NCBI GenBank assembly: GCA_964470695.1
Contig: CAYYDR010000002.1
Location: 136,401-200,400, forward strand
Length of the DNA: 64,000 bases
Source of the DNA: an uncultured Gammaproteobacteria bacterium
GTDB lineage: Bacteria > Patescibacteriota > Patescibacteriia > Patescibacteriales > UBA12465
Direction: 5' to 3'
Below, one piece after another: positions 22,153 to 42,112 of the stretch. The notes below the pieces were generated by a model, which had not been told where the DNA came from, searched no databases, and saw only the letters and a list, made by a program, of their open reading frames with translations. The position numbers and the translations under genes are program-made. Numbering within the stretch: position 1 is the first letter of the stretch; each line of letters begins with the position of its first letter.

Positions 22153-23175
22153 ATGCCATTATTTTATCAGACAGACAATCAGCAGCTGGATAAATTTATA
22201 AACCAGGCTTCTCAGGCCGCCGGGTCGGAGTTTGCTTGGCTCGGTTCGGAATATTTACAATCCTGGGCCTGGGGAGAAATTTTAAAAGCGGAGGGAGAAA
22301 CTATTATTAGAGTCGGCTGGCGGGCGGAAAATGAAAATAAAATTTTAGCCGCGGCTACGCTAGTCAAAAAATCTTTAGGGGCTGGATATTATTATTGGTA
22401 CGCGCCGCGCGGTCCGATTTTTAACATAGCTAATCAGGCGGAGGCGGAAAAAGCCAGGAGAGATTTTTTGGGGGCGATAAAAGGGATTGACCCTAAAGCT
22501 TTATTTTTAAGGATTGAACCGAATTTTGAATTAGATAAAAACAAGGATCTTAAAAAAGATTTAAGCGTTAAACCTAGTTTAGCCCTGCAGCCTAAACAGA
22601 CATTAGTTTTAGATTTGAAAAAGAGCGCTGAGGAACTCTTAGTGGAAATGCATCAGAAGACTAGATATAATATCCGTCTAGCAGAGAAAAGGGGAGTAAT
22701 TATAAGAGAGGGGTGGGTAGCGGATAACGCGGAATTTTGGCGGCTCATGAGTTTAACTAGTGAGCGGGACGGCTTCCGTTTGCACGGAGCCGAGCATTAT
22801 AAAAATCTTTTAGGAGCTGATTCTAGATTTATTAAACTATTTCTGGCGAGCTATGAGGGGCGCAATATTGCGGCCGGCTTATTCTGTTTTTGGGGCGGCC
22901 GGGCGACTTATTTGCACGGCGCTTCAGATAATGAAGCGCGTAATTTAATGGCCCCGTATTTATTGCAATGGGAAGTTATTAAGCGCGCTAAAGAGGCGGG
23001 CCAGATGGCCTATGATTTTTATGGTATTGATGAGAAAAAATGGCCGGGCGTAACGCGATTTAAGCGGGGTTTTGGCGGCCGGGTTATTAATTATCCGGGG
23101 ACTTATGATATTATTTTTCAGCCAGCGGCTTATAAAATTTATAGCTGGCTGAGGAAATTAAGGAGACTAGTATGA
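22153..23175 (+). CDS. FemAB-family peptidoglycan interpeptide-bridge aminoacyltransferase
   Basis: 340 aa. LHGASDNEARNLMAPYLLQWEVIKRAKEAGQMAYDFYGI is typical of FemX/MurM-type enzymes. Confidence 0.8.
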   Translation: MPLFYQTDNQQLDKFINQASQAAGSEFAWLGSEYLQSWAWGEILKAEGETIIRVGWRAENENKILAAATLVKKSLGAGYYYWYAPRGPIFNIANQAEAEKARRDFLGAIKGIDPKALFLRIEPNFELDKNKDLKKDLSVKPSLALQPKQTLVLDLKKSAEELLVEMHQKTRYNIRLAEKRGVIIREGWVADNAEFWRLMSLTSERDGFRLHGAEHYKNLLGADSRFIKLFLASYEGRNIAAGLFCFWGGRATYLHGASDNEARNLMAPYLLQWEVIKRAKEAGQMAYDFYGIDEKKWPGVTRFKRGFGGRVINYPGTYDIIFQPAAYKIYSWLRKLRRLV

Positions 23176-23179
23176 AACA

Positions 23180-23250
23180 AAAAATCCCCCGATTAGGGAG
23201 ATTTTTATGATTCCGTTGCAGTTCTTTTATTTGGACCCAAACCTGACTTT
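23180..23250 (-). ncRNA. Putative short RNA unit, copy A (minus-strand promoter to bidirectional terminator)
   Basis: Minus strand: TTGACC-N16-TATAAT (plus 23276-23281 and 23254-23259), then ~65 nt ending in hairpin aaaaaUCUCCCUaaucGGGGGAUuuuuu (23180-23206). The same hairpin terminates the plus-strand FemAB gene. Confidence 0.3.
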
Positions 23251-23282
23251 ATTATTATAGCATAATAAGTATTTAGGTCAAT

Positions 23283-23355
23283 TGTGGACCCGTGGGGAGT
23301 TGAACCCCAGGAACCTAAATGTCAGGTCTAGGTCCGGAACCGCTCCCGGACCCAC
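23283..23355 (-). ncRNA. Non-canonical tRNA-like element, copy A
   Basis: Minus strand: GGGUCCG...UGGGG-UUCAACU-CCCCA-CGGGUCC-A. It has a 7-bp acceptor-like stem, a canonical-looking T arm and a GG-containing D-like hairpin. It is only ~69 nt, has no U33/purine-37 anticodon loop, and CCA is not encoded. Confidence 0.35.
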
Positions 23356-23424
23356 GCCGTAAATCATGGTAGCATGGCGAGCCTGAAATAAATTTAAATT
23401 TTTTCTAAAGGAATATTTTATTTT

Positions 23425-23931
23425 ATGATAGAAATAAATAATCAAACAAAACAAAAAATTAATTCAAAAATTATTGTCCAACTGGCAGAGTATTTTTTGC
23501 GAGTTTATAAAAAAAGTGCTTGGTCGGTATCGCTAGCTTTAGTCGGGCTGACCCGGATTAAGCAGTTAAATCGTGATTATCGAGGCATTAATAAGGCGAC
23601 AGATGTTTTATCTTTTGTGAATGAGTCAGATTCAAACGCGGCCGGCTTAAATGCGCCGGGCGAGACCATTAAGCAGAAGTACTTAGGCGAAATAGTGATT
23701 AATTTAGCGGAAACGGTTAAGACTAATAAATATAAGGTGATGTTAGGCGAAATAGGCTTGGATTTTAAAAAATATGGGCAAAAGCCTAAGGCGGGAAGAC
23801 GCGATAATTATATTTTTTATTTTCTTTTAATTCATGGTCTGCTGCATTTAGTCGGCTATGACGACGCGACGGAAAAGGGGCGTCTTGAGATGATGCAATT
23901 AGGGAAGAAGTTTTTAGCGAAATACTTGTAG
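23425..23931 (+). CDS. ybeY: rRNA maturation endoribonuclease YbeY
   Basis: C-terminal Zn motif HGLLHLVGYDD (HxxxHxxGxxH family). 168 aa. Confidence 0.85.
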   Translation: MIEINNQTKQKINSKIIVQLAEYFLRVYKKSAWSVSLALVGLTRIKQLNRDYRGINKATDVLSFVNESDSNAAGLNAPGETIKQKYLGEIVINLAETVKTNKYKVMLGEIGLDFKKYGQKPKAGRRDNYIFYFLLIHGLLHLVGYDDATEKGRLEMMQLGKKFLAKYL

Positions 23932-24561: not shown

Positions 24562-24594
24562 TTTAATATATTGTTAGCCTGTTATAATATTTTG

Positions 24595-27500
24595 ATGTCT
24601 TTATTTTCCGGACGGAAATTAAGAATTATTTCTTCCACTTTTTTATTAAGTGTGGCTTTTTTATTTTGGCTATTTGTGCCGTCAGTTCAGGCTTTCCACG
24701 CTACTTCTTCCTACAACAAACCAACCAACGGAACTTTGACTTCGTCTAACTGGAATGATTTGTTTAGCGACTTCGTAAATACTTGGTTGCCGACAACCAT
24801 GAATGGTCCGCTTGGCATTGGGACGACTATCCCGCCCTCATCCGGTTTATTAGTTAATGGCCCAGTTAATGCTTTAAATATTTATTCTACTAGCAATGTC
24901 GGAATTGGGAAAACTAATCCCGGTTCAGCTTTAGATTTAATCGGCAGTATTAATTCCTCGGGAACAGTTAATGGCACGGGCCTCTGTATTGCTAATGATT
25001 GTAAAGTTTCTTGGCCAGCCGTCGGCGCGGCTTCTTCGGGCTGGACCCAGAGCGGACTAACCTTATATAAGACGGATGTAAATGGCAATGTCGGTATTGG
25101 TACGCCAACCCCGACTCAGAAGTTAACCGTGACCGGAATTATTGAATCTACTAGCGGCGGTTTTAAATTTCCGGACGGAACAGTCCAGATTACGGCAGGG
25201 GGCGGCGGAGCTAGCCAGTGGGTTTCCGCTTCGTCTACATCTATATATTATAATGGCGGTCGTGTCGGCATAGGGACAACTAATCCAGCCTCTACCTTAG
25301 ATGTCGGCGGTACGGGCATAACCTTAGGCGGCGTGACTAGAACGACTTGGCCAGGCGGCGCCGGTTCGGGCTTCGGTACTGACGCGGGCACTTACGCTTA
25401 TTACATGGGCGGCAATGTCGGTTTCGGCGTCACTAATCCGACTTCAAGATTGCAAATTTATACTTCCGCTGCTTACGACGGCATTTCAATTGACGGCAAT
25501 AATAGCCCAGCTTTTAAATTAATGAACTCAGGCGTGGCTAAGGGCTATATTGCTTTGCCATCCTCGGCTAATGTTTTTTCCAGTGATGCGGCCGCTAATG
25601 ATTTGGTTATTAGAACAGAAAATGTTTCGCAAAGAATTTTATTTAATGTAAATGGCGGTGGTGCCTCCATGATGGCTTTGAATAATGGGAATGTGGGGAT
25701 AGGGACGACTAATCCTTTGGGCAAATTACAGGTTGAATCAGTGGGCGGGGCTAATACGGGTATTAGATTAAATTTAACGAGTGGAGGCAGTTATGCTCCG
25801 ATTGATTTTTATACCCCGACGGGATTAGCTGGCCAGTTTTTAGCGACGGGCGCCACATTTACTAACGGCGGCTTTAAAGGAGACGAATTAATTTTAGCAA
25901 GCGAACTACCGGCCGGAGGGCTGCACCTTGGAGCAATAGGAGCGTCTGGTTATATTAAATTTACAGCCGGAGGCTTAGCTGAAGTTAATGAAAGAATGAG
26001 AATAAATTCGGCCGGAAATATCGGTATTGCCAAGACAAATCCAGGCACAACTTTAGACATCGTTGGCAGTCTGAGCGCCTCAGGAACTGTTAATGGTACT
26101 GGTCTTTGTATCGCTGGTGATTGTAAGGTTTCTTGGCCGACTATAGTGGCGGCGGGAGGAGGGAATCTCTGGAGTGGCACAACTACGGGCGCGATTTGGA
26201 GCGCTAATAGTGGGAATGTGGGCATCGGGACGACGGCGCCTGAAAATAGTGCGAAGCTAGATGTGAGAGGAAGAATATCAGTAAAAGAAGCCTCAAATGG
26301 AGAATTACAATTTGGGACAACCGCAAATTATGCATTCTTAGAAGCATGGGATGGATCTGCAGACAGAGATCCGAAACTACCTATTCTGTTAAACCCTTGG
26401 GGTGGCAACGTTGGAATAGGGACGACAGCGCCAACAAGTAAATTGCATGTAAAAGGAGATAATGCTTACTTATTAGTAGACAGTGCGGATTATAATAACT
26501 TTTATATTGGTCCAAGAGGATCTAGCGGTGTAGGCTTAGATAAGGCTTATCTGGAACTGAAAGACACGGGAGTAACAAAAATAGCGCTTGATTCTAATGG
26601 CAATACTTATTTCAACGGTGGTAATATTGGGATTGGAACAACAACTCCAATAAGCAAACTGAGCATTCAAGATGCTATTCGTACGGAATTATTAATTGAT
26701 GGCAATACTGGCGGAAGCGCTGATAGTTATGCTTCAGCCTTGGTTTTAAGAAGTAATACGGATTATAGAGGCCGAGGCGTCCTTATGAGTGTTAGAGATG
26801 CTACTGCTGAGTGGTATGCCGGCGTGCCTTATGAAGGAGGGAGCTATCAGATTGCTTATGATCCAACCGCTGGTCAGGGAGAATATAAGGCTAATGCTAA
26901 GTTATATATTAATACAGCTGGTAATGTTGGTATTTCTAAAACTGTTCCCGCGACCACTTTAGATATAGTCGGAGGAGTTAGTTCTACAGGCACAGTTAAC
27001 GGCACTGGTCTCTGTATCTCGGGTGACTGTAAGGTTTCTTGGGCAGCGGTCGGCGCGGCTTCTTCCGGATGGACTCAAAATGGCAATGAAGTTTATAAAA
27101 CAAATACAGCGGGGAATGTGGGGATAGGGACAACGAATCCACAAAGGAAATTACATATTTCCGGTGGAGCCGTATCGCTTGATAACTTTAAGCAATTAGG
27201 GTTAGCAAATTCTTCCGGAACTTTGGATTATTGGCAAATTTTCAGTAACCAGGGCAGCGCTAATGCGTATGGTCCGGCCGATGCATTTGTGATTTATGGT
27301 AATGGTGCTAGCCGTATGGTAGTGGATACTTCCGGCAACGTCGGCGTTGGGACAACAACACCTAGTGCTAAATTGGAAGTATATAATGCTGTTAACCGAA
27401 AAATAAAAATTGATCCGGGTAAAGCTTTGGATGTTGACGGCGAACCGCAGTTAACAATTAGGGAATTTGTCCCTGGCATTAAATTTGAGGATGCTAGTGG

Positions 27501-30500
27501 AGGGAGCACATCATGGCTAACTTTTGCTAATAGTAATAATTTTTATATTGGACAGTATACAGGGGCAGTTATTAGCAGTTCTAATACCTTTACTATAAAT
27601 AATTCCGGTAACGTCGGAGTTGGCACGACAAGCCCGGAGACAAAATTACATATTGCCGGAAATTCGGGGACATATACTAGCACGGGAGCGTCCGGCTCTG
27701 TGTTGTATGCTCAGACGACTGGGGCCAATACATACCCCATGAATGCTTACTTCAATGCCGCGGGTACTACTGATAATACTGTTCGTCATCGTTTTGCTAA
27801 TAATGGAGTGAATAAATGGCAAGTAAACTATAGCAACGATATTAATTGGTATTATGATACGCCTGGGACTGGGAGTTGGTCTCCTTCAGTTACATTTCAG
27901 CAGGGCGGAAATGTTGGTATTAATAAAAGTAGCCCAGCGACCACTTTAGATATAGTCGGAGGGGTTAGTTCTACAGGCACAGTTAACGGCACTGGTCTCT
28001 GTATCTCGGGTGACTGTAAAGTTTCTTGGGCAGCGGTTGGTGCGGCTTCTTCGGGCTGGACGCAGAATGGAAATGAAGTTTATAAAACAAATACAGCTGG
28101 GAATGTGGGGATTGGGACGACGGCACCTACATCTCGTTTAAGCATCCAAAATAGTGCAGCGTCTGATAACATACTTAGTAATTATGCAATTACCAATGGC
28201 AACAACGCTGCCACTTTTAGGACAAGTGATACTGGGCCAATATTTGGCATACATGCTCAAAATAATGGGGATATATATATAAAAGACACGGGTGACAATA
28301 TTTTATTTTATGGAAAGAATGGCGGCAACGTTGGAATTGGAACGACGAATCCTTTGGCATTACTTCATGTCAGCAAGAGTGTTGCTGGCGGTGACACATC
28401 TTTAATGATTCATAATACTGCTGCTACAACTAACAACAGTTCCGCCACATTAAATTTAGGCGTATGGTCTGGTTCGACACTAGCTAATCCTAGTGCACAA
28501 ATTCGTGCAATCAATGTTAATCAAAGTTATGGTTCAACAGATCTAACATTTGGGACACAAGCGAATGATGGATATTTATATGAGAGAATGAGAATAAATT
28601 ATGCCGGCAACGTCGGGATCGGGACAACAAATCCTGTTTATCTTTTGGATGTTAATGGCGCTGGTAGATTCGCTAGCGTGCTAACGGTGGGAGACTCTGC
28701 TCCAACTGTTTTGCAATCAAGTAGAGGTGCTACTGACGGGAGTCAGATATCTTTAGCTTCTAATTATAGCCCAACTGTAGGCGCTATGTATTCAAGTGCC
28801 GCCGCTTTCTTATCTAGTAATGCCAGACAGACGACCGGCGGGGTAGATGCTTGGGGCAAGGGGTCAGCTACATATTCGTCTAATTTAATTTCTTTAGGTA
28901 TCTCTACTGCTAATAATGGGACTGCTTTCCAAGTTAAAAATTCGCCAGCCAATACTGTTGGCGGGGCATATAGTAGTTTTTTCCCAAACACCTTGTTTGC
29001 TATTTTAGAAGGCGGAAATGTTGGCGTTGCTAAAGCTAACCCCGGAGCTACTTTAGATGTCACTGGCGGTATAAATGCCTCTGGCACAATTAATGGTACT
29101 GGCCTTTGTATAGGCGGTGATTGCAAAGTTTCTTGGGCGGCGGTCGGTGCGGCATCTTCCGGTTGGACTCAAAACGGAAATGAAGTTTATAAAACAAATA
29201 CAGCGGGAAATGTGGGCATTGGTACTACTAACCCAGGAACAAATAAATTACATATTTATAATGGAGCGTCTGGCTCAACGGCTTATGAGGCGGGGGGATT
29301 AGTAGTTGAAGATTCTAATAGATCTTCTATTTCCTTGCTTGCTCCTAATGCTAGCGATTCTTATTTATTTTTTGGCGACGCGAGTGCTGCCAATGCCGGT
29401 TATGTTGGACATTATGGGGCTACTATGAGTCCAGCTAATTTGATGGTTTATTATAGTGCTGGTAATCATGCTTTTACAGGCGGCAATGTCGGAGTTGGGA
29501 CAACTACTCCGACAGTAAAATTACATGTTCAGGGCAACACTGATACTATAGCGCGATTTGAAAATAGCGTTGCTAATAGTAATCCAGGGATTGAGCTCAA
29601 GAATGATGCGGAAACTTGGACTATGATGAACGCCGGAGCGCGCGCGGATAATTTTGAAATATATGATGTTGGTAGCGGTGCTACGCGTTTAGCTATCAAG
29701 CAGGATGGTAATGTCGGGATTGGGACGACGAATCCGACAGTATTTTCCAGTTTATTTCCCGCTCGTTTAGCCGTAGTCGCTTCAGGAGCGGCTGACACTA
29801 TTATTGCTAAAACAGATTCAGCTCAAACTAATGCGGCGGCCGGCGTCTTTCATCAATCTTCCCTTACTCCTGGATTTGATGCTTTCCGAATACAATCAGT
29901 CGCTACTTCCAGCACGATGGCGGTGTTAAATGTTTTATCCGGCGTTGACGATTCTAGTGGCGTGGGCGGGAGCAGCTTATTATTTGTTAGAGGAGATGGT
30001 AATATCGGCGTGTCCAAGGTTAATCCTGGGACAAAATTAGATGTGGTTGGCGGCATAAATGCCTCTGGAACGGTCAATGGCACCGGTCTTTGTATAGGCG
30101 GGGACTGTAAAGTTTCTTGGCCAGCGGTTGGCGCAGCCTCTTCTGGCTGGACTCAAAACGGTACGACGGTTTATAAAACTGATACGAATGGAAATATAGG
30201 AATAGGAATAACCGCCCCAACGGCAAAACTGCAAATTGGGACACAGGCGTATGGAACGGCGCCAGATGGTCAGCAATTCCAGGTCGGATTAGATAATTAT
30301 TCTGGAGCAGGGCCTGCGGCTGGAATAAGTGGCTATCCTATTATTGCTAACAAAGATCTCTACGCTTCGTCTATATTAGATGTAGTGGGTGGCTGGGAAC
30401 AGGCAAGTGCTAATCATCCGCTGTTAAGAGTGTCTGCTTACAATACTATAAATAGCACTCCGTCCTTTGTTGTTTTAAATAGCGGTAATGTCGGTATTGG

Positions 30501-32739
30501 GACGACGGCATTAAGTAATAAATTGACAGTAGGAGTTGCTGATAGTTCAATTACGCAGGCTAGCGGCGGAGCTGTCTTAAATATATTTAATAGTGATAGC
30601 ACTGTTAATAATTATGCCAGTATAGCCTTTGGTCAATCAGGGGCTGGTTCAAATAGTTTCTCCAGAATCGGGGTTCAGTACAGAGACCGAACAGGAAGTT
30701 CAGAGGATCAGGATATTTTCTTTAGCACTATAGGAGCGGGAAGCTATAGCGAGAAAATGAGAATTATATCTACGGGTAACGTCGGCATTGGAATAACAAA
30801 TCCAAACTCCCGCTTGCATAGTTATAATTTTACGGCCGATGGCACAACGGGCCGGACAAACATTATTGATGTTCTAACCTTGGAAACAGCTAATACTGCT
30901 AATGCTCCGTATCGTGGATTTGGGCAGGGCATAGAGTTTAGGGGGCGGACATATTCAAATAGCGCGGTCAGGACTTTAGGAAGGATAGCAACTGTTTTAA
31001 CTGATGATTCAATAACAAATACCGGCACCGCTTTAGTGTTCCAAAATGTGGCTGACTCAGCGACAGTAACAGCGCCTATTGAAAGAATGAGAATTGATTA
31101 TAATGGTAATATAGGTATTTCTAAAACTAACCCCGGCACAACTTTAGATGTAGTCGGCAGTATTAATGCCTCCGGCACGGTTAATGGCACGGGTCTTTGT
31201 ATCGGTGGGGACTGTAAAGTATCTTGGCCAGCGGTTGGATCAGCTTCTTCGGGATGGAATAGAACCGCTCCTTATATATATCCGGCGACTTTAACAGATA
31301 ATGTGGGGATTGGGACGACAAATCCTGGCACTTTGTTTGAAGTAAAAACTGGCGCAACGAGAAAAATTCAAATCGCTAATGGCAACGGAATTAATGCGGT
31401 CACGGGAGATTATGTAGGAGGTCTATTTATAGATAATTCTAATATATTAAATCTTCAATCTTATTTGGTTGGCACAGGGGGGCAATCTTTAGCACTTAAC
31501 GCTTTGGGCGGCAACGTCGGAGTTGGCACAACAAGCCCAATATATAAATTTGATGTTTTAGGTCCGGCCGGAGATGTAGCGCGTTTTACAAATGGGACAG
31601 AATCTCTAAGGGCATATTTAGGTAGTAGTTATAAAATTTTTCAAACAAATGCCAATGACCAGTTTGGATATGTAGGCAATCAATTCTATGTTACTGCGAA
31701 TGGCGGCACGGAAGCGGTTAGAGTAAATTTATCTGGAAATGTCGGAATTGGAACGACGGCGCCAGAAACTAAACTTGATGTTTATGGTGGGACAGATGCA
31801 AGCGCTACTATACAAGCGAGATATAATAGAACGAGTGTCGGAAACATTAGAACAATATTTAAAGCATTCCACCCAACATCAGGCAATTCCAGTGCAATTA
31901 TTGGTGCTGACTCAGGGAGCACTGATGTCCAGTTTGTGACTGGTGGAAGTACTCCGACCCAGTCTAAGATGACAATACTATCTGGCGGTAACGTCGGCAT
32001 TGCTAAAACTAACCCTGGCACAACTCTAGACGTAGTTGGCAGTATTAATGCCTCGGGAACAGTTAATGGCACCGGTCTTTGTATAGGCGGGGATTGTAAA
32101 GTTTCTTGGCCAGCAGTCGGCGCGGCTTCCTCAGGCTGGACTCAGAACGGCTCAGTGGTTTATAAGACTGACACGGCCGGTAATGTCGGTATTGGCACGA
32201 CAAATCCGACCGCGGCGAAATTAACTATCAGTGGCGATTTAAGCGCGACGGGCGCAACTTTAAGCGGCGCGTTAGTTATGAATGGCGGCGGCACTAAGCA
32301 AAATATTACCGGTGTTAATAAGCTAACGGTTGATGTTATTGACCCGTTATACTATATTAATGGTGTGAACTATTCTTCTTATGCAGCCTCTATGATCGGC
32401 GGCGTTAAGGAAGAATATGTTGGCAAAATAAAATTAGATAAGAAAAATAGGACAGTCCAGGAATTTGAAGCAACAATTGATTTTGCTGGCGCGGCTGAGG
32501 GCAGCGAATTATGGCTCTGGCGCAAGGTTGTTAATTTCAATAAGGATAATGTAGAAGTCTTAATAACGCCTTATGGTCGTTTCGCCCGCACCTATTATTT
32601 CTTAGACGGCGAGAAGATTATTTTCCGCTCTGATTTACCAGTAGAAATTTCCTATCGTTTAATTGGTAAGCGTTTTGACTGGCGCAAGTGGCCGACTCGC
32701 GCGTTAGATCAAGCAGAAAGGGGTATGGATGTGGAATAA
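24595..32739 (+). CDS. Giant secreted modular fibre/adhesin-like protein (2714 aa) with tail-fibre-like GNVGIGTTxP repeats and 8 Cys-x4-Cys junctions
   Basis: Continuous ORF. ATG at 24595 is preferred over TTG at 24571. Sec-type signal (…LFVPSVQA|FH). The first Cys codon of each junction is at 24985, 26107, 27013, 28000, 29107, 30091, 31198 and 32080. Unique C-terminal ~170 aa. Confidence 0.9.
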   Translation: MSLFSGRKLRIISSTFLLSVAFLFWLFVPSVQAFHATSSYNKPTNGTLTSSNWNDLFSDFVNTWLPTTMNGPLGIGTTIPPSSGLLVNGPVNALNIYSTSNVGIGKTNPGSALDLIGSINSSGTVNGTGLCIANDCKVSWPAVGAASSGWTQSGLTLYKTDVNGNVGIGTPTPTQKLTVTGIIESTSGGFKFPDGTVQITAGGGGASQWVSASSTSIYYNGGRVGIGTTNPASTLDVGGTGITLGGVTRTTWPGGAGSGFGTDAGTYAYYMGGNVGFGVTNPTSRLQIYTSAAYDGISIDGNNSPAFKLMNSGVAKGYIALPSSANVFSSDAAANDLVIRTENVSQRILFNVNGGGASMMALNNGNVGIGTTNPLGKLQVESVGGANTGIRLNLTSGGSYAPIDFYTPTGLAGQFLATGATFTNGGFKGDELILASELPAGGLHLGAIGASGYIKFTAGGLAEVNERMRINSAGNIGIAKTNPGTTLDIVGSLSASGTVNGTGLCIAGDCKVSWPTIVAAGGGNLWSGTTTGAIWSANSGNVGIGTTAPENSAKLDVRGRISVKEASNGELQFGTTANYAFLEAWDGSADRDPKLPILLNPWGGNVGIGTTAPTSKLHVKGDNAYLLVDSADYNNFYIGPRGSSGVGLDKAYLELKDTGVTKIALDSNGNTYFNGGNIGIGTTTPISKLSIQDAIRTELLIDGNTGGSADSYASALVLRSNTDYRGRGVLMSVRDATAEWYAGVPYEGGSYQIAYDPTAGQGEYKANAKLYINTAGNVGISKTVPATTLDIVGGVSSTGTVNGTGLCISGDCKVSWAAVGAASSGWTQNGNEVYKTNTAGNVGIGTTNPQRKLHISGGAVSLDNFKQLGLANSSGTLDYWQIFSNQGSANAYGPADAFVIYGNGASRMVVDTSGNVGVGTTTPSAKLEVYNAVNRKIKIDPGKALDVDGEPQLTIREFVPGIKFEDASGGSTSWLTFANSNNFYIGQYTGAVISSSNTFTINNSGNVGVGTTSPETKLHIAGNSGTYTSTGASGSVLYAQTTGANTYPMNAYFNAAGTTDNTVRHRFANNGVNKWQVNYSNDINWYYDTPGTGSWSPSVTFQQGGNVGINKSSPATTLDIVGGVSSTGTVNGTGLCISGDCKVSWAAVGAASSGWTQNGNEVYKTNTAGNVGIGTTAPTSRLSIQNSAASDNILSNYAITNGNNAATFRTSDTGPIFGIHAQNNGDIYIKDTGDNILFYGKNGGNVGIGTTNPLALLHVSKSVAGGDTSLMIHNTAATTNNSSATLNLGVWSGSTLANPSAQIRAINVNQSYGSTDLTFGTQANDGYLYERMRINYAGNVGIGTTNPVYLLDVNGAGRFASVLTVGDSAPTVLQSSRGATDGSQISLASNYSPTVGAMYSSAAAFLSSNARQTTGGVDAWGKGSATYSSNLISLGISTANNGTAFQVKNSPANTVGGAYSSFFPNTLFAILEGGNVGVAKANPGATLDVTGGINASGTINGTGLCIGGDCKVSWAAVGAASSGWTQNGNEVYKTNTAGNVGIGTTNPGTNKLHIYNGASGSTAYEAGGLVVEDSNRSSISLLAPNASDSYLFFGDASAANAGYVGHYGATMSPANLMVYYSAGNHAFTGGNVGVGTTTPTVKLHVQGNTDTIARFENSVANSNPGIELKNDAETWTMMNAGARADNFEIYDVGSGATRLAIKQDGNVGIGTTNPTVFSSLFPARLAVVASGAADTIIAKTDSAQTNAAAGVFHQSSLTPGFDAFRIQSVATSSTMAVLNVLSGVDDSSGVGGSSLLFVRGDGNIGVSKVNPGTKLDVVGGINASGTVNGTGLCIGGDCKVSWPAVGAASSGWTQNGTTVYKTDTNGNIGIGITAPTAKLQIGTQAYGTAPDGQQFQVGLDNYSGAGPAAGISGYPIIANKDLYASSILDVVGGWEQASANHPLLRVSAYNTINSTPSFVVLNSGNVGIGTTALSNKLTVGVADSSITQASGGAVLNIFNSDSTVNNYASIAFGQSGAGSNSFSRIGVQYRDRTGSSEDQDIFFSTIGAGSYSEKMRIISTGNVGIGITNPNSRLHSYNFTADGTTGRTNIIDVLTLETANTANAPYRGFGQGIEFRGRTYSNSAVRTLGRIATVLTDDSITNTGTALVFQNVADSATVTAPIERMRIDYNGNIGISKTNPGTTLDVVGSINASGTVNGTGLCIGGDCKVSWPAVGSASSGWNRTAPYIYPATLTDNVGIGTTNPGTLFEVKTGATRKIQIANGNGINAVTGDYVGGLFIDNSNILNLQSYLVGTGGQSLALNALGGNVGVGTTSPIYKFDVLGPAGDVARFTNGTESLRAYLGSSYKIFQTNANDQFGYVGNQFYVTANGGTEAVRVNLSGNVGIGTTAPETKLDVYGGTDASATIQARYNRTSVGNIRTIFKAFHPTSGNSSAIIGADSGSTDVQFVTGGSTPTQSKMTILSGGNVGIAKTNPGTTLDVVGSINASGTVNGTGLCIGGDCKVSWPAVGAASSGWTQNGSVVYKTDTAGNVGIGTTNPTAAKLTISGDLSATGATLSGALVMNGGGTKQNITGVNKLTVDVIDPLYYINGVNYSSYAASMIGGVKEEYVGKIKLDKKNRTVQEFEATIDFAGAAEGSELWLWRKVVNFNKDNVEVLITPYGRFARTYYFLDGEKIIFRSDLPVEISYRLIGKRFDWRKWPTRALDQAERGMDVE

Positions 32740-35637: not shown

Positions 35638-38600
35638 ATGATTTTACAAAAAATCATACCCCGCAAGACTTTGATGCTTGCCTGGGTCGTTGGCCTTTTT
35701 ACGGTCGGTTTTTTTATTTTCCAGACCAATCAGATTGCTGAAGCTGTTAACACTTGCGGTTTCAATAGTCTCAAGACGGGCGCGTTCAGCGTTAGCTCCA
35801 ATTGTACTATCAGTTCGCAATTCGGTTCCGGCTTTGAAGGAGTTGATAGCGGCGATTTGACTATAGCCTCAGGAAGACAGATTGTCATTGGCTCGGGATC
35901 GGCCTTAGTCTTAAGTCCGAGCAGCCAGCTTATAATTACCAAGCCCAGCCATCCGTCCGGAGCCATAGTATTTACGGATAGCTCCAGTCAAATTGTTAAA
36001 GGGAGCTTATGCGCCCAGGATGCGGATGCGGACGGTTACGCCGATAAGACTCCTTACTCAGGCCAGGCTGAACCGGTTTTTTTCTACGCTACCGGCAATT
36101 GTCCGACTACCCCAGTTAATTATGTTAAGAAAGGGCTTTTGACTTCTTTAACTCAACTGGATTGTAATAGCGCTTCTGGCGCCACTCAGAAAATAGATTG
36201 CGTTAAGACCCGCGTTAATGGTGAGTGGTCTAACGTTGGGACTTGCGGACAATATACTCCTGGCATCCAGGTAAGAACCAGAACTTGGACGGCGACTGTA
36301 AATACCCAACCAGATTGCGGCGGTACGGCCTGCGGATCTTTATCAGGCACGGAGGATGATTATACTTTAATTTGCGGCACCTGTATTCCAGGCGCAACCC
36401 AGACTAATTATTGCGGCGAAGGAGCCTGTGCTAGCTCACAACTAGTAACTTGCCGAGCCGATGGAACCTGGCCGACCGATTGTACCTCGGGAACCGCTGA
36501 AAATGATGCCTCTTTCTGTTCCCGTTTAGGTAAAAACTGCGGCTCTTTTACGGGCGTGGATAATTGTTTAGCGGCTAGAACGGCTAATTGCGGCTCTTGT
36601 ACTTTACCTCAGACCTGCGGCGGCAGCGGCACGGCTAATGTCTGCAGCTGTTTAGATACTACTTGGACTCCGGCCACTAACGCTATTTGTACTCCAGCGA
36701 CGGGCGGTCCAGCGACTTTTACTCAGACTAGCAACTGCGGTACACAGCGACAGGAAGTTGGGACTCAGGTCTGCTGTTTAACTGGTTATCGCGATTATGA
36801 TAAGGATGGCTATGGTACGGGCGCTTCGGGCTGCTATGTCCCAACCATTACTTATAATATAGTGGCTAATGCTAATGATTGTAATGATAGTGATTCTAAT
36901 ATTTATCCAGGACGCACGGTTACGACTTTCTGCGGCGTGGGCAGCTGCGGCGGCAGCGGGACGGACACCTGCGACGCGACTGGAGGAACTTATACGCATA
37001 CAGTCCCTTGTACGACTAGCGCAGCCGCTTGTTGCGAAGCGAATGGCAGCTATAAGTTAGCCGACACCGGCGTTAATACCTGTCAGAAATGTACTGGTTC
37101 TTCGGCAACGCCAGTTAATCAAACTTCTTCCGAAGACTTATTAAATAATTGTACGAGTGGCGCAGCCGGTAGTGCGACAGCTTGTAAATCAAATAACTGT
37201 TCCGGTACTGGCGACTCTTGCGGTTTTGTTGGAGCAGGAACTTCTTGTCGCGCTTCGGCCGGCGTCTGCGATTCAGCGGAAACTTGTACTGGTTCGGGAT
37301 TTTCTTGTCCGATAGATTCTTTCTTATCAAATTCTACTATTTGTAATACCGGTACTTTTAATACGCCAGCGAGCGGTTTCTGCCAGAGAGTTGCAACTGA
37401 TACTAAATGCAGCGGCAGCGCGGCAGCCTGTAATGGTTCAACTGTTAATAGATATGATAACGCGCCAACAGCCGGTAATGTTTGGAATGGAACAGCCTGG
37501 GCGACGGCTTCAGCCTCGGTTAATTGCGGCTTGAGCGGTTATCTATGCAGTACCCAGCAGATTTATCAAAATTTTTACGGCTGTAATACGAGCGGTACTT
37601 GCGATAATGTTACATCTAGAGGAACTACTAATGGCGCTAATTGCAGCGGCGGTGAAAATGCCCGTTGTGCGGTTGGGTCTGGTTCCTGTTTTAATGGCTG
37701 TTCTAATAGTATTGATGATGATGGCGATGGATATATTGACGCGACTGATCCGGATTGCGGTGCGGTCTGCACCTCTGGCGATTGTTGTAATTTAGCCACC
37801 GGACAATATAAGACAGCCGGTACAGTAATTGGTACTTGTAAGAAATGTACTGGATCTTCTAATACTTCAGTCTTCCAGACTTCTTCGGAAGATTTAGGCG
37901 GTAATTGTATGACTGGCGCGGCCGGTAGCGCCACCGCCTGTCAATCTAATAATTGTTCAGGAACAACTGATTCTTGTGGTTTTGTCGGAGCAGGAACTTC
38001 TTGCCGCGCTTCGGCCGGCGTCTGCGATTCAGCGGAAACTTGTACTGGTTCGGGATTTTCTTGTCCGATAGATTCTTTCTTATCAAATTCTACTATTTGT
38101 AATACCGGTACTTTTAATACGCCAGCGAGCGGTTTCTGCCAGAGAGTCGCAACTGATACTAAATGCAGCGGCAGCGCGGCAGCCTGTAATGGGGCGACAG
38201 CTGATAGATATGATAATGGCTCGGTCGGGCAGGTTTGGAATGGAACGGCCTGGGCAACAGCTTCAGCCTCGGTTAATTGCGGTTTCAGCGGTTACTTATG
38301 CAGCGGCCAGCAGGTTTATAGAAACTATTTTGGTTGTACGGGGGCGGGCGCTTGTAGCGCAACGGTAGCTGGAACAAGCAACGGCGCTTTATGTACGGGA
38401 GTAGAAAGTAATCGTTGCGTGGCCGGCAGTAGTTCTTGTCAAAATAACTGCGGCAATGGTTTAGACGACGATAGCGATGGCTTTACTGATGCTTTAGATA
38501 CAGACTGCGGTGCGGTCTGCACCTCTGGCGATTGTTGTAATTTAGCCACCGGACAATATAAGACAGCCGGTACAGTAATTGGTACTTGTAAGAAATGTAC

Positions 38601-41600
38601 TGGATCTTCTAATACTTCAGTCTTCCAGACTTCTTCGGAAGATTTAGGCGGTAATTGTATGACTGGCGCGGCCGGTAGCGCCACCGCCTGTCAATCTAAT
38701 AATTGTTCAGGAACAACTGATTCTTGTGGTTTTGTCGGAGCAGGAACTTCTTGCCGCGCTTCGGCCGGTGTCTGCGATTCAGCGGAAACTTGTACGGGCT
38801 CAGCCTTTACTTGTCCGATAGATTCTTTCTTATCAAATTCTACTATTTGTGATACGGGTGCTTTTAATAATCCAGCGAGCGGCTCCTGCCAGAGAACAGC
38901 AGTTGATACTAAATGCAGCGGCAGCGCGGCAGCCTGTAATGGTGCTACGGCTAACCGCTATGATAACGGCTCAGCTAACCAGGTTTGGAGCGGCACTTCC
39001 TGGGTAGCCTCCTCAGTTTCTACTAATTGTAATTTAAGCGGTTACTTATGTAGCGGCCAGCAGATTTATAGAAGTTACTATGGTTGCGATGGCAGCGGCT
39101 CTTGCAGTGGGACAGCGGCGGGTACTAGTAATGGGACTTTATGCAGCGGAGAAGGCACCACTAATAAATGCATCGCCGGGAATGCTACTTGCCAGACTAA
39201 TTGTGCTGATGGTTTAGATAATGATGGCGATGGCTATACGGATACTCAGGATGCCGGTTGCGGCGGGTCAGAACAATGTACATCAGGCGATTGTTGTAAT
39301 ACTACTACCGGAGCTTTTAAGGCGATTAATACAGTAATTGGTACTTGCAAGAAATGCACTGGTTCTTCGGCCACTTCTGTAAATCAGACATCATCTGAAG
39401 ATTTAGGTAATAATTGCTCATCGGTCAACGGAGCTTGCCAGCTAGGTAATTGCTCAGGTTCTGGCGATTACTGCGGTTATGTCGGAGCGGGAACAACCTG
39501 TCGCGCCTCAGCCGGGGTTTGTGATGCTGCAGAGACTTGTACTGGTTCTGGTTACTCCTGTCCTATAGACTCTAAATACTCTACTTCTTATGTCTGCTCC
39601 TCTGGCTCATTTAATAGTCCGGCCTCTGGTTCCTGCCAGAGAACAGCGACTGACCAATATTGTAATGGGACTGCCGATACTTGTACCGGTACTACGGGAA
39701 CTCGTTATGACAACGGATCTACTAACCAGGTTTGGAACGGCAGCGCTTGGGCCGCCGCTTCGGCGTCAGTTAATTGTAATATGAGCGGCTACTTATGTAG
39801 CGGCCAGCAGATATATAGAAATTATTATGGCTGTAATGGCAGCGGCTCCTGCAGCGGGACAGCGGCCGGGACGAGCAATGGATCTTTATGTAGCGGGGAA
39901 GGAACAGCTAACAAATGTGTCGCTGGTAATAGCACCTGTCAATCTAATTGTACTGACAGTTTAGATAATGACGGCGACGGTTATACTGATGCTTTAGATA
40001 CAGATTGCGGAGCGGTTTGTACTTGGGGTGATTGCTGTAATACCGCCACTGGTCAGTATAAAGCGGCTAATACGGTAATAGGCACTTGTATGAAATGTAC
40101 AGGTTCTTCTAATACTTCAGTTGCCCAGACTTCCAGTCAAGACTTAGGCGGTAATTGTTCAACTGGTGCGGCCGGTAGCGCTACTTCCTGCCAATCAAAT
40201 AACTGCTCAGGCTCGGGCGATTCTTGCGGCGCTTTAGCCTCGGGAACGACCTGTCGCGCTTTAGGTGGTCCATGCGACGTTACCCCAGAGACTTGTAATG
40301 GCTCGTCATATTCTTGCCCGGCGGATAGTTTTCAGAATACCAGTTATGTCTGTAGCACAGGATCTTGTTCAGCTCCTGCCTCTGGAGCTTGTTCTAGCAC
40401 AGCGACTGACCAATATTGTAGCGGTTCATCGCCCCTATGTAATGGGGCGTCAGTGCCTCGGAATTGTAATGCTCCTTCCGGCCAAGTCGGTAACGGGAGC
40501 ACCTGGGTAGCGGCCTCGGCGTCAGTTAATTGTAATATGAGCGGCTACTTATGTAGCGGCCAGCAGATATATAGAAATTATTATGGCTGTAATGGCAGCG
40601 GCTCCTGCAGCGGGACAGCGGCAGGGACAAGTAATGGATCTTTATGTAGTGGGGGGGAGAATAGTCGTTGTGTCGCTGGACAGTCTTCTTGCCAGAGCTT
40701 TTGTTCTGGTGGAGCAGATGAAGACGGTGATGGATATATTGATGGCCAAGATACTAATTGTGGAGGCTATGGACAGTGTACATCAGGTGATTGCTGTAAT
40801 ACCGCTACTGGTGCTTATAAGCCAGCCGGTTGTTTGTCTGGTTGTCTAAAATGTACTGGGAATTCAACCACTTCCGTTGTTCAGGGAGCAGGAGAAGATT
40901 TATGTAATTATTGTCCAGAGTCTCCAGCCGGGCCGTGTGAGGCCACTACCTGTGACGGGACTTATAATTTCTGCGGCGCTTTGTCTAATAGCACGACCTG
41001 TCGCGCTTCAGCGGGAGTTTGCGATCCAGCAGAAAAATGCACCGGCGGTTCAGGGAGTCATGATTGCCCGGTTGATTCTTACTACGGTAACACAGTAGTA
41101 TGTTCTACTGGTTCCTTCAATTCCCCCGCCGCTGGTTCTTGCCAGAGAACAGCGACTGATCAAAAATGTTCTGGTAGCTCCGCGGCTTGTAACGGCGCGA
41201 CGGTTAATCGCTATGAGAACGCGCCTGTAGCTTCCCTAGTTTGGAATGGTAGTGCCTGGAATAATGTTACATCATCAAACTATTGCGGCACTAGTGCCTG
41301 GGCTTGCAGCGGCAAACAGAATTATTATAGTTTTTACGGATGTAATACGAGCGGCTCCTGCAATACTTCTTCATCGGCCGGGACAGTGAATGGAACTCTA
41401 TGCGATGCTTGCCAGAATTGTACCACGCCTAATAGCTGCACAACCATTCAATATACCGGTTATAGGGATTATGATAAGGATAGCTATGGCACTCCAGGCT
41501 ATGGGACATACTATTGCAGTTCTGGTTATGATGTGGTGGCTAACGGCAATGACTGTAATGATAGTAACGCTTTAGTAACCACCCCGACCTTTACGGATGA

Positions 41601-41868
41601 CTTTACTTTCTGTCGTTGTCAGAATCTATGTGGTGGAACACAATGGACACAGTATGATTTTAGTTGCACACCGACACAGACCAAAGTTACTACTTGTAGT
41701 TATGGCTGCCCTAGTGGTTATATCACTAATTGCTGGGTGCCTAGATTACAAGGAGCTACCTTTTCTGGCGCTTGTTCAGGGGGGAGTTGTGTTATGGGGG
41801 CAACTGAGAATTTAGGAGATTGTAGTACTAATTATTGTTGGGGAACCTCTGGTTGGATGGAACCATAA
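35638..41868 (+). CDS. Giant cysteine-rich secreted protein (2076 aa) with six ~250-aa disintegrin-like / DxDxDG tandem modules
   Basis: Continuous ORF with an N-terminal TM/signal. It contains repeated GDCCNxATGxYKxAGTVIGTCKKC, SCRASAGVCDxAExCxGxxxxCPxDS and LDxDGDGYxDxxDxDCG, and is flanked by GYRDYDKDGYG...NDCNDSxxxxxPG motifs. Confidence 0.9.
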   Translation: MILQKIIPRKTLMLAWVVGLFTVGFFIFQTNQIAEAVNTCGFNSLKTGAFSVSSNCTISSQFGSGFEGVDSGDLTIASGRQIVIGSGSALVLSPSSQLIITKPSHPSGAIVFTDSSSQIVKGSLCAQDADADGYADKTPYSGQAEPVFFYATGNCPTTPVNYVKKGLLTSLTQLDCNSASGATQKIDCVKTRVNGEWSNVGTCGQYTPGIQVRTRTWTATVNTQPDCGGTACGSLSGTEDDYTLICGTCIPGATQTNYCGEGACASSQLVTCRADGTWPTDCTSGTAENDASFCSRLGKNCGSFTGVDNCLAARTANCGSCTLPQTCGGSGTANVCSCLDTTWTPATNAICTPATGGPATFTQTSNCGTQRQEVGTQVCCLTGYRDYDKDGYGTGASGCYVPTITYNIVANANDCNDSDSNIYPGRTVTTFCGVGSCGGSGTDTCDATGGTYTHTVPCTTSAAACCEANGSYKLADTGVNTCQKCTGSSATPVNQTSSEDLLNNCTSGAAGSATACKSNNCSGTGDSCGFVGAGTSCRASAGVCDSAETCTGSGFSCPIDSFLSNSTICNTGTFNTPASGFCQRVATDTKCSGSAAACNGSTVNRYDNAPTAGNVWNGTAWATASASVNCGLSGYLCSTQQIYQNFYGCNTSGTCDNVTSRGTTNGANCSGGENARCAVGSGSCFNGCSNSIDDDGDGYIDATDPDCGAVCTSGDCCNLATGQYKTAGTVIGTCKKCTGSSNTSVFQTSSEDLGGNCMTGAAGSATACQSNNCSGTTDSCGFVGAGTSCRASAGVCDSAETCTGSGFSCPIDSFLSNSTICNTGTFNTPASGFCQRVATDTKCSGSAAACNGATADRYDNGSVGQVWNGTAWATASASVNCGFSGYLCSGQQVYRNYFGCTGAGACSATVAGTSNGALCTGVESNRCVAGSSSCQNNCGNGLDDDSDGFTDALDTDCGAVCTSGDCCNLATGQYKTAGTVIGTCKKCTGSSNTSVFQTSSEDLGGNCMTGAAGSATACQSNNCSGTTDSCGFVGAGTSCRASAGVCDSAETCTGSAFTCPIDSFLSNSTICDTGAFNNPASGSCQRTAVDTKCSGSAAACNGATANRYDNGSANQVWSGTSWVASSVSTNCNLSGYLCSGQQIYRSYYGCDGSGSCSGTAAGTSNGTLCSGEGTTNKCIAGNATCQTNCADGLDNDGDGYTDTQDAGCGGSEQCTSGDCCNTTTGAFKAINTVIGTCKKCTGSSATSVNQTSSEDLGNNCSSVNGACQLGNCSGSGDYCGYVGAGTTCRASAGVCDAAETCTGSGYSCPIDSKYSTSYVCSSGSFNSPASGSCQRTATDQYCNGTADTCTGTTGTRYDNGSTNQVWNGSAWAAASASVNCNMSGYLCSGQQIYRNYYGCNGSGSCSGTAAGTSNGSLCSGEGTANKCVAGNSTCQSNCTDSLDNDGDGYTDALDTDCGAVCTWGDCCNTATGQYKAANTVIGTCMKCTGSSNTSVAQTSSQDLGGNCSTGAAGSATSCQSNNCSGSGDSCGALASGTTCRALGGPCDVTPETCNGSSYSCPADSFQNTSYVCSTGSCSAPASGACSSTATDQYCSGSSPLCNGASVPRNCNAPSGQVGNGSTWVAASASVNCNMSGYLCSGQQIYRNYYGCNGSGSCSGTAAGTSNGSLCSGGENSRCVAGQSSCQSFCSGGADEDGDGYIDGQDTNCGGYGQCTSGDCCNTATGAYKPAGCLSGCLKCTGNSTTSVVQGAGEDLCNYCPESPAGPCEATTCDGTYNFCGALSNSTTCRASAGVCDPAEKCTGGSGSHDCPVDSYYGNTVVCSTGSFNSPAAGSCQRTATDQKCSGSSAACNGATVNRYENAPVASLVWNGSAWNNVTSSNYCGTSAWACSGKQNYYSFYGCNTSGSCNTSSSAGTVNGTLCDACQNCTTPNSCTTIQYTGYRDYDKDSYGTPGYGTYYCSSGYDVVANGNDCNDSNALVTTPTFTDDFTFCRCQNLCGGTQWTQYDFSCTPTQTKVTTCSYGCPSGYITNCWVPRLQGATFSGACSGGSCVMGATENLGDCSTNYCWGTSGWMEP
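37030..41460 (+). repeat. Six in-frame tandem repeats, period 741-759 bp, inside the Cys-rich gene
   Basis: The CC dipeptide codons of each module start at 37030, 37783, 38533, 39292, 40033 and 40792. 37756-38018 matches 38506-38768 with no mismatch seen. Confidence 0.9.
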
Positions 41869-41996: not shown

Positions 41997-42112
41997 ATAA
42001 GCACATAATATTCAAGTCTGTAAATTAGAGGACAGAGTATCCGCCCTTTAAAAATTGAAGAAAAAAAAGAAATTAATGAATAAAAATAAAATAATCCTTG
42101 AAGGAGGACAAA

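Follow-up and report, generated by a model that had tools for sequence, protein, structure and literature searches.

What are the two tRNA-like elements encoded on the minus strand of the 64-kb stretch of contig CAYYDR010000002.1 analyzed here (hereafter, the window), and what could they do? A sequence-only reading had described them as ~70-nt units. In this analysis, each element, herein referred to as RNA-A, was found to be adjoined by the gene for a second small RNA, RNA-B, and the two together form a module. RNA-A resembles the tRNA-like domain (TLD) of transfer-messenger RNA (tmRNA) and carries an alanine identity set, and RNA-B is complementary to RNA-A. The antisense RNA-B is the most informative feature of the locus; it was overlooked by the sequence-only reading, as were the TLD likeness and the alanine set. 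According to the explanation favored here, to which we give about an even chance, RNA-A is an alanine-accepting, template-less paralogue of tmRNA, and RNA-B is its dedicated antisense masker, antidote-like or acting as an on/off control.

RNA-A and its likeness to the tRNA-like domain of tmRNA

Two copies with tRNA-like parts are present on the minus strand where the sequence-only reading had placed them:

23285..23353, minus strand: RNA-A copy 1, 69 nt; TLD-only match to RF00023 with 34.5 bits; 74.6 bits with the covariance model R1 (see below); ARAGORN negative
48254..48322, minus strand: RNA-A copy 2, 69 nt, with the same architecture as copy 1; 83.6 bits with the covariance model R1

Nucleotide G1 is located at 23353 in copy 1 and 48322 in copy 2, and the discriminator A at 23285 and 48254, respectively. 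All three parts of the fold previously drawn by hand hold in both copies. The acceptor stem has 7 bp (nt 1-7/62-68; GGGUCCG/CGGGUCC in copy 1 and GGGCCCG/CGGGUCC in copy 2) and is followed by a small, GG-containing D-like hairpin. The T arm has 5 bp and a 7-nt loop (UUCAACU in copy 1, CUCAAUC in copy 2). The length of ~69 nt was also borne out, as was the lack of an encoded CCA; the letters at the 3' end of the window copies read ACA, i.e., the discriminator A and then CA. The place of the anticodon arm is taken by a central hairpin (GGAxx...GGUUCC) with a loop of 13-15 nt. The UGACAUUU loop singled out by the sequence-only reading is real, but it is a mere part of this central loop, and its conservation does not extend beyond this clade. 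Of the compensatory changes claimed between the copies, one true double change stands, at the first T-stem pair (U-A vs. C-G), whereas the others are one-sided changes via G·U.

RNA-A shares the 7-bp acceptor stem and the 5-bp T arm with a UUCRAnn-type T-loop with tRNAs, but a 7-nt anticodon loop with U33 and purine 37 was not found in it. The earlier view that the elements are not ordinary tRNAs agrees with the detectors: ARAGORN found no tRNA or tmRNA genes in the window, and no Rfam family reached its gathering score at the RNA-A copies. Among the below-threshold Rfam matches, the TLD of tmRNA is the only good one. In a permissive search, copy 1 matched RF00023 (tmRNA) with 34.5 bits (E=4e-12) over model positions 1-374, with 306 internal positions deleted; because of this deletion, only the TLD of tmRNA aligns to it. 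Six RNA-A members were aligned to this model end-to-end, with an internal deletion of 304-316 positions and 25.8-46.5 bits. This was the best score in the Rfam clan, in which the tmRNA model outscores the tRNA model. The gathering score of RF00023 is 47 bits, and so the threshold is reached neither by the best RNA-A member (46.5 bits) nor by copy 1. The model for two-piece tmRNA (RF04321) gave only 15.5 bits (E=0.77).

Thus, RNA-A has a TLD with G3·U70, A73, a D-loop analogue, and a T arm. An mRNA-like region with a resume codon and a tag open reading frame (ORF) was not found: ARAGORN reported no tag, and RNA-B has no consistent ORF or stop. Additionally, both acceptor strands lie inside one 69-nt RNA, unlike in permuted two-piece tmRNA, in which the gene is permuted and the acceptor stem is formed in trans. 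The architecture is that of the TLD-only tmRNA of the jakobid type, with no mRNA-like domain and the alanine identity kept, a similarity that does not imply common descent. RNA-A as the tmRNA of the cell was ruled out by the loci L029, L034, and L035, where a canonical tmRNA of 366 nt (tag VKNLFNTPVPAFALA) is located ~5 kb from the module and has acceptor and T-arm sequences unlike those of RNA-A.

The acceptor nucleotides of RNA-A are G1-C72, G2-C71, G3·U70, and A73, which form the alanine identity set common to tRNA-Ala and tmRNA. G3·U70 alone is enough for recognition by AlaRS, as in the alanine minihelix. This pair is present in all 24 distinct RNA-A copies analyzed, with U70 and A73 having been fixed by the scan pattern. 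Alanylation of RNA-A is therefore strongly predicted from its sequence.

These copies belong to a larger family. A 31-nt degenerate pattern covering the 3' half of RNA-A matched the window at the two known sites only, with no matches in 100 shuffles. Scanning of metagenome contigs with a 3'-half pattern yielded 24 loci. After removal of duplicates and of four non-members (two tRNA-Ser-like sequences, one apparent tmRNA 3' end, and one 5'-truncated copy), 18 distinct RNA-A genes were left, and the covariance model R1 was built from 17 of them. With this model, six additional copies of greater divergence were detected in these loci, resulting in 24 distinct A/B pairs. In the window itself, only the two known copies were detected by R1, even with the filters off, and everything else scored at most 11 bits. 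Conservation of a non-canonical tRNA-like small RNA, as the sequence-only reading had proposed, therefore extends beyond this genome, with 22 further copies on metagenome contigs. The contigs with named proteins belong to the Patescibacteria group, Parcubacteria, and Terrybacteria. No matches to the 3' pattern were found in the scanned viral contigs.

Across the family, RNA-A is 67-72 nt long. Its acceptor stem is 99% paired in the 17 aligned copies, with double changes at four of the seven pairs. Its covariation score of 0.277 (0.114 in shuffles) was reached by none of 500 shuffles, and slid registers scored far lower. G1, G2, and G3 are invariant in these 17 copies and were not specified by the search pattern, which did specify U70, C71, C72, and A73 and is thus a source of bias at those positions; one later-found pair of copies has A2. 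The T arm is 100% paired, largely as fixed by the pattern. On this sequence evidence, the RNA-A copies are real small-RNA genes.

Some homologues are called by ARAGORN as tRNAs: 'tRNA-Asp(gtc)' of 68 nt in L016 (4472-4539) and 'tRNA-Thr(tgt)' of 78 nt in L028 (814-891) and L037 (504-581). Because of these calls, public records likely list family members wrongly as tRNAs. In L017 (2358-2448, contig JAEEGK010000673.1), ARAGORN called a 91-nt 'tRNA-???' with a 4-base anticodon (cccg), which lies outside the RNA-A family. A scan of genome contigs with a central pattern, TCCGGA-N6-10-TGACATTT-N0-2-GGTTCC, gave eight matches in unrelated phyla. None of these fits R1, and they are therefore considered chance matches, the central loop being too variable as a probe.

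The antisense RNA-B and the full module

In the window, RNA-B follows RNA-A at a distance of about 40-60 nt. In copy 1, the RNA-B segment 5' GUCAGGUUUGGGUCC (23247..23233) pairs with nt 19-33 of RNA-A in an uninterrupted helix of 15 bp, and a second contact is formed between GAACUGC of RNA-B (23224..23218) and nt 11-17 of RNA-A (GCGGUUC). In copy 2, the segment 5' AAAUGUCAAGUUCGGUUCC (48197..48179) pairs with nt 20-38 of RNA-A in an uninterrupted helix of 19 bp. The helices of the two copies differ by compensatory changes. A cognate RNA-B with an uninterrupted helix of 13-19 bp was found adjacent to each of the 24 distinct RNA-A copies. It is located 37-95 nt downstream of RNA-A in 23 of them and upstream in L036. 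For comparison, shuffled sequences gave helices of 7.9±1.3 bp, and unrelated non-cognate pairs gave 6-9 bp.

The central loops of RNA-A are unrelated between lineages (e.g., CUGGCCUAUCAUCCAA, ACCCGGAUUGUCACC, and GGAUCGCGGGUUGCCACC), and the RNA-B partner matches every time. In most pairs, the first ~30 nt of RNA-B are the reverse complement of RNA-A nt ~8-39, which comprise the D-loop analogue together with the 5' strand and loop of the central hairpin. The D-region contact is formed by GCGGUUCC of RNA-A and GGAACCGC of RNA-B. A bimolecular pseudoknot between GGAACC of RNA-B and GGUUCC of RNA-A was also considered and was dropped once GGAACCGC proved to be antisense to this D-region segment.

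Mismatches in the A-B helices, scored symmetrically, comprise 30 of the G·U type and 12 of the A·C type (p=0.008), and this excess argues for selection of the pairing at the RNA level, on this strand. Cognate pairs have a mean free-energy difference (ddG, RNAcofold) of -20.7 kcal/mol (range -14.5 to -26.7), vs. -7.1 kcal/mol for co-resident non-cognate pairs and -5.4±6.6 kcal/mol for all non-cognate pairs. In the window, the cognate values are -20.2 (copy 1) and -18.5 kcal/mol (copy 2), and those of the cross pairs are -8.4 and -8.1 kcal/mol. Specificity was assessed by these cognate/non-cognate comparisons and by the shuffle tests. Pair counting on a concatenated alignment of the A and B cores was not relied on, as MAFFT placed gaps one-sidedly. 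As in type I and type VIII toxin-antitoxin pairs, the two genes are adjacent, and their RNAs pair specifically.

In a 400-nt alignment around both window copies, ~250-280 nt are conserved. The previously described ~70-nt element is thus real as RNA-A, but the conserved unit is larger and includes a second RNA gene. The two window modules are ~77% identical over this alignment, flanks included. On the minus strand, the order is an extended -10, RNA-A, a TTGAC-16-TGnTAnAAT promoter, RNA-B, and an intrinsic terminator, with the following features:

23354..23400, minus strand: putative promoter and short 5' leader of RNA-A copy 1, with an extended -10 (TGcTACCAT) at 23374..23366, 12 nt before G1, and a poor -35; read from the sequence
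48335..48343, minus strand: putative extended -10 of RNA-A copy 2 (TGcTATATT), 12 nt before G1; read from the sequence
23254..23281, minus strand: promoter of RNA-B copy 1, TTGACC-16-TGcTATAAT; promoter scan, 11/12; kept in copy 2
48203..48230, minus strand: promoter of RNA-B copy 2, TTGACT-16-TGcTACAAT; promoter scan, 10/12
23179..23247, minus strand: RNA-B copy 1, ~69 nt; inverted repeat, helix, cofold, and terminator scan
48127..48197, minus strand: RNA-B copy 2, ~71 nt; inverted repeat, helix, cofold, and terminator scan
23206..23180, minus strand: intrinsic terminator of RNA-B copy 1, preceded by an A-rich linker and also facing the end of femAB; terminator scan
48152..48127, minus strand: intrinsic terminator of RNA-B copy 2; terminator scan

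The promoters of the two RNAs differ in strength of consensus. Those of RNA-B have a mean of 10.7 of 12 consensus matches in the 24 modules and lie 4-11 nt (mostly 5-7) upstream of the base at which pairing starts. Those of RNA-A have a mean of 7.8 of 12, with 3.1 of 6 in the -35 part. RNA-B is ~57-75 nt long in most copies and contains, past the antisense segment, a short A-rich linker and the terminator, with no other recognizable part. In L036 (2940-3120, minus strand), where the module adjoins the PNPase gene and RNA-A encodes CCA, RNA-B precedes RNA-A, and both have a promoter and a terminator of their own, so that action in trans is possible. In L015 (4190-4400), a promoter is followed directly by only the 3' half of RNA-A (GUCAAACUAGGUUCC, the T arm, and the acceptor 3' strand) and by an atypical RNA-B, which represent either a degenerate copy or a variant form.

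Genomic setting of the modules

Copy 1 of the window adjoins a gene of the FemAB family (Pfam E=9.5e-50) and is antisense to it. The module, of 249 nt, lies between femAB and ybeY and supplies both a terminator facing femAB and the ribosome-binding-site region of ybeY. The letters ATGA are found at both module ends (23172-23175 and 23425-23428), whereas L002 has a single overlapping ATGA formed by the femAB stop and the ybeY start. The double ATGA may be a 4-bp target duplication or may reflect selection keeping both genes intact. L002 is one of four relatives (L002-L005) reached through FemAB homologues, which are named Patescibacteria or Falkowbacteria. This synteny route yielded no RNA-A homologues: in all four the site is empty, femAB directly adjoining or overlapping ybeY.

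Judged by ORF lengths and translations, the femAB|ybeY placement is found in the window and apparently in L021, L026, and L032. Modules at gatC|gatA were found in five loci. Other neighbors, ligA among them (ligA|gatC|gatA), include aroC and the genes for M16 peptidases, ribonucleotide reductase, PNPase, and pilins, as well as giant ORFs. In L020 (9521-10270), and also in L025, L022, and L023, the order is ligA - module - gatC - module - gatA; these modules represent two subfamilies and are all antisense to the genes. Thus, several modules can occur per locus: two in the window, three within 3 kb of L023, and one on each side of gatC in L020. Roughly 22 of the 24 modules run antisense to the genes on both sides, and the RNA-B terminator is bidirectional and faces the 3' end of the upstream gene. 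In L016 (1-5205), the module (~4300-4560, minus strand), promoters and terminator included, lies inside an opposite-strand frame that stays open for at least 1735 aa, with no stops in 5205 nt. This giant gene, surface-protein-like, appears to tolerate the module as an in-frame stretch.

The sequence-only reading had linked the elements to giant-gene clusters. This link is not general, as elsewhere the neighbors include gatC/gatA, aroC, and the ribonucleotide reductase and PNPase genes. Likewise, the 25 kb bracketed by the copies are not a repeated unit; a duplication was rejected since the equal-length ORFs between the copies (508 and 160 aa) are unrelated. The giant ORFs of the window encode 2722, 2076, and 4519 aa (24571-32739, 35638-41868, and 48554-62113). 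Pfam, run on the first two, gave no match for the 2722-aa protein and only a sub-threshold Disintegrin match for the 2076-aa one. The three giant ORFs adjoin pilin-like N_methyl genes and genes for cupredoxin-domain proteins. A 660-aa protein (42098-44080) has weak matches to papain-like C1 peptidases and a Por_Secre_tail domain (type IX secretion sorting), in an apparent Patescibacteria genome.

Possible functions of the module and comparison with known systems

Computation established the anatomy of the module, its conservation and covariation, the cognate specificity, and the promoter asymmetry. On this basis, RNA-A would be a TLD paralogue of tmRNA from which the whole mRNA-like and pseudoknot part is gone. 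It would mature like a tRNA, by RNase P at U-1/G1, 3' trimming, and CCA addition, and be charged with alanine by AlaRS. As a TLD mimic, Ala-RNA-A might then interact with SmpB, EF-Tu, and stalled ribosomes while offering no template. RNA-B, a presumably strongly transcribed minimal antisense RNA, would nucleate on the exposed loop of RNA-A, and the pairing would unfold the central hairpin and the D-loop analogue, either inactivating RNA-A or exposing the duplex to RNase III. The module would accordingly act as a cognate-specific, RNA-only sense/antisense control pair. The engagement of SmpB and ribosomes, the direction of the regulation, and any toxicity we infer. It is possible, though unlikely, that this is an RNA-only system of toxin/antitoxin type, in which free RNA-A would capture SmpB, EF-Tu, or stalled ribosomes and a short-lived RNA-B would keep it unfolded, with several orthogonal pairs per genome.

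Several observations weigh against the favored explanation. The UUCGAC...GGAC nucleotides, conserved in tmRNA at the base of helix 2, are absent from RNA-A (gaps in the Rfam alignments), which makes binding of SmpB uncertain. In 23 of the 24 modules, no terminator separates RNA-A from RNA-B, and the RNA-A primary transcript therefore probably holds RNA-B in cis; the pairing may then serve processing rather than regulation in trans. The A·B duplex could also be the active rather than the inactive form. Conserved syntenic sites in diverged genomes fit a beneficial function as well as an addictive one. Finally, the sample is biased, since GGUUCC, the T arm, and UCCA-3' were preset in the scan pattern, and R1 was trained on the resulting hits.

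Other explanations differ in the role given to each RNA. The A·B complex might itself be the active ribosome-rescue RNA, a bipartite mini-tmRNA in which RNA-B gives a helix-2-like second strand and a short template or tag. This is improbable. The TLD likeness of RNA-A agrees with it, as do the resume-codon-like GCA, GCC, or GCG often found in RNA-B right after GGAACC and the short in-frame stops in some clade members (e.g., GCA ACG GAA UCA UAA in window copy 1); natural two-piece tmRNAs joined by base pairing are also known (PMC3590771). However, among close relatives the putative RNA-B frames vary in length, closing after 4, 8, or more than 18 codons. In window copy 2 and L022 the terminator is reached without a stop, and RNA-B of L014 is stop-free in every frame; the tag-ORF interpretation of RNA-B was rejected for these inconsistent stops. 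The GGAACCGC motif itself belongs to the antisense segment, the pairing would use up the D-loop analogue needed for the TLD fold, and a canonical tmRNA is encoded nearby in L029, L034, and L035. There is also only a small probability that RNA-B is an effector small RNA (sRNA) with its relevant targets elsewhere and RNA-A is its tRNA-like sponge, decoy, or stabilizer. The stronger promoter of RNA-B would fit such roles, and tRNA-derived sponges for sRNAs are known. Yet no other site in the 64-kb window resembles the target segment of RNA-A at up to three mismatches, and canonical tmRNA was rejected as a target because its best helix with the co-resident RNA-B has only 8 bp, the chance level. 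The pairing segment of RNA-B varies freely between lineages and tracks RNA-A alone, and the alanine set and T arm conserved in RNA-A would be needless for a mere sponge.

The FemAB-family gene next to window copy 1, and apparently next to the modules of L021, L026, and L032, together with the alanine set, raises the thought of a non-ribosomal alanine carrier for FemAB/FemX-type transferases, comparable to the staphylococcal non-proteinogenic tRNA-Gly; FemX-type enzymes use Ala-tRNA. We see only a slim chance of this, as the site is empty in the closer-sampled relatives, most modules lie beside unrelated genes (gatC/gatA, aroC, ribonucleotide reductase, PNPase, pilins), femAB and the element have opposite orientations, and both RNA-B and the multiple orthogonal copies would be left unexplained. 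The RNA fold would be incidental if the module were a selfish or mobile intergenic cassette that brings along a promoter and a terminator, or if it were an attachment site or the decayed remnant of a tRNA or tmRNA. The patchy presence at syntenic sites, the multiple copies per locus, the ATGA at both ends of the insert, the position inside the long opposite-strand ORF of L016, and the nearly constant antisense orientation would all suit a cassette. Nevertheless, the copies have diverged to ~77% identity while acceptor pairing, G3·U70, and A-B complementarity were kept by compensatory change, and the bias of G·U over A·C indicates selection on the RNA of one strand. Neither terminal inverted repeats nor, among the flanking ORFs examined by translation and Pfam, a transposase or integrase was found. 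The decayed tRNA or the recombination or integration site offered by the sequence-only reading does not fit for the same reason and because the acceptor stem covaries with G1-G3 invariant and each copy has its own promoter. We consider this group of explanations rather improbable; RNA function and mobility are, moreover, compatible with each other. An ordinary tRNA, or one with an odd anticodon loop, overlooked by the detectors is extremely improbable despite the tRNA-Asp and tRNA-Thr calls in L016, L028, and L037. ARAGORN is silent on both window copies and most homologues, Rfam prefers the tmRNA over the tRNA model, and the 13-15-nt central loop differs from lineage to lineage, with RNA-B complementary to it at every base.

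If the favored explanation of a masked tmRNA paralogue is true, a major uncultured radiation carries multi-copy template-less tmRNA paralogues beside normal tmRNA, each under a co-evolving antisense RNA. Ribosome rescue or alanine-charged RNA would then be subject to a new layer of control, or else the module would be a new all-RNA addiction module, and the tRNA-like domain of tmRNA would be re-usable as a free-standing part. For annotation, the standard procedure overlooks RNA-A genes or miscalls them as odd tRNAs. The modules also put a promoter and a terminator into operons (femAB|ybeY, ligA|gatC|gatA), and the naturally orthogonal A/B pairs represent a ready set of specific RNA-RNA interaction parts. 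A bacterial TLD-only tmRNA paralogue with an antisense partner was not found in the literature searched, an incomplete search that covered a paper on introns in the tRNAs of Patescibacteria as well as the tmRNA database update of 2025.

Among known systems, RNA-A shares with the TLD of bacterial tmRNA (SsrA; RF00023) the acceptor with G3·U70 and A73, a GG-containing D-loop analogue, the 5' sequence (GGGGGUGAUUUGG in L014, vs. the tmRNA consensus GGGGguGAucuGG), the GGGGUUCRAnUCCCC T arm, and a helix between the D analogue and the T arm. In contrast to tmRNA, RNA-A has ~69 rather than ~360 nt and no pseudoknots, resume codon, or tag ORF. It scores below the gathering threshold and occurs in multiple copies beside a canonical tmRNA, with a dedicated antisense partner. 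Reduced mitochondrial tmRNAs of jakobids have lost the mRNA-like domain but kept the A discriminator and a G·U as the third acceptor pair, with CCA added post-transcriptionally, and that of Jakoba libera is contiguous, not permuted (Jacob et al. 2004 in PMC3590771). For jakobid tmRNAs without the mRNA-like region, such a template-less entry into stalled ribosomes is likewise proposed (PMC3590771). RNA-A is likewise TLD-only, with the G·U at position 3, the A discriminator, and, in the window copies, no encoded CCA. The jakobid RNAs are organellar, single-copy, usually permuted and two-piece, and the sole tmRNA of their compartment, with no antisense partner described for them. The descent is also independent, alphaproteobacterial for the jakobid RNAs and from Patescibacteria for RNA-A. 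Two-piece tmRNAs of Alphaproteobacteria and some cyanobacteria (RF04321) resemble the module in consisting of two base-paired RNAs, with the strand after the D-loop analogue involved. In those, however, the acceptor stem is split, the gene is circularly permuted, and one piece carries the tag ORF, whereas in the module RNA-A holds both acceptor strands, the order is unpermuted, and RNA-B has no consistent ORF.

With the alanine minihelix and the acceptor of tRNA-Ala, RNA-A has in common G1-C72, G2-C71, G3·U70, A73, and a 7-bp acceptor stacked on the T arm; unlike tRNA-Ala, it has no anticodon arm, and its charging is predicted. For the control pair, the systems to compare are the trans-encoded antitoxin sRNAs of type I (istR/tisB, ohsC/shoB, and orzO/zorO) and the RNA-RNA pairs of 'type VIII'. 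The target in the module is a tRNA-like RNA of putative toxicity rather than the mRNA of a toxic peptide; no ORF is conserved across RNA-A in the two window copies, in which the ATG-initiated frames differ. The similarities to these pairs comprise adjacent non-overlapping genes, ~18-30 nt of complementarity, a strong antisense promoter with a weaker target promoter, several diverged cognate-specific copies per genome, and a patchy distribution. The module combines a tmRNA-TLD-like RNA with an antisense control pair.

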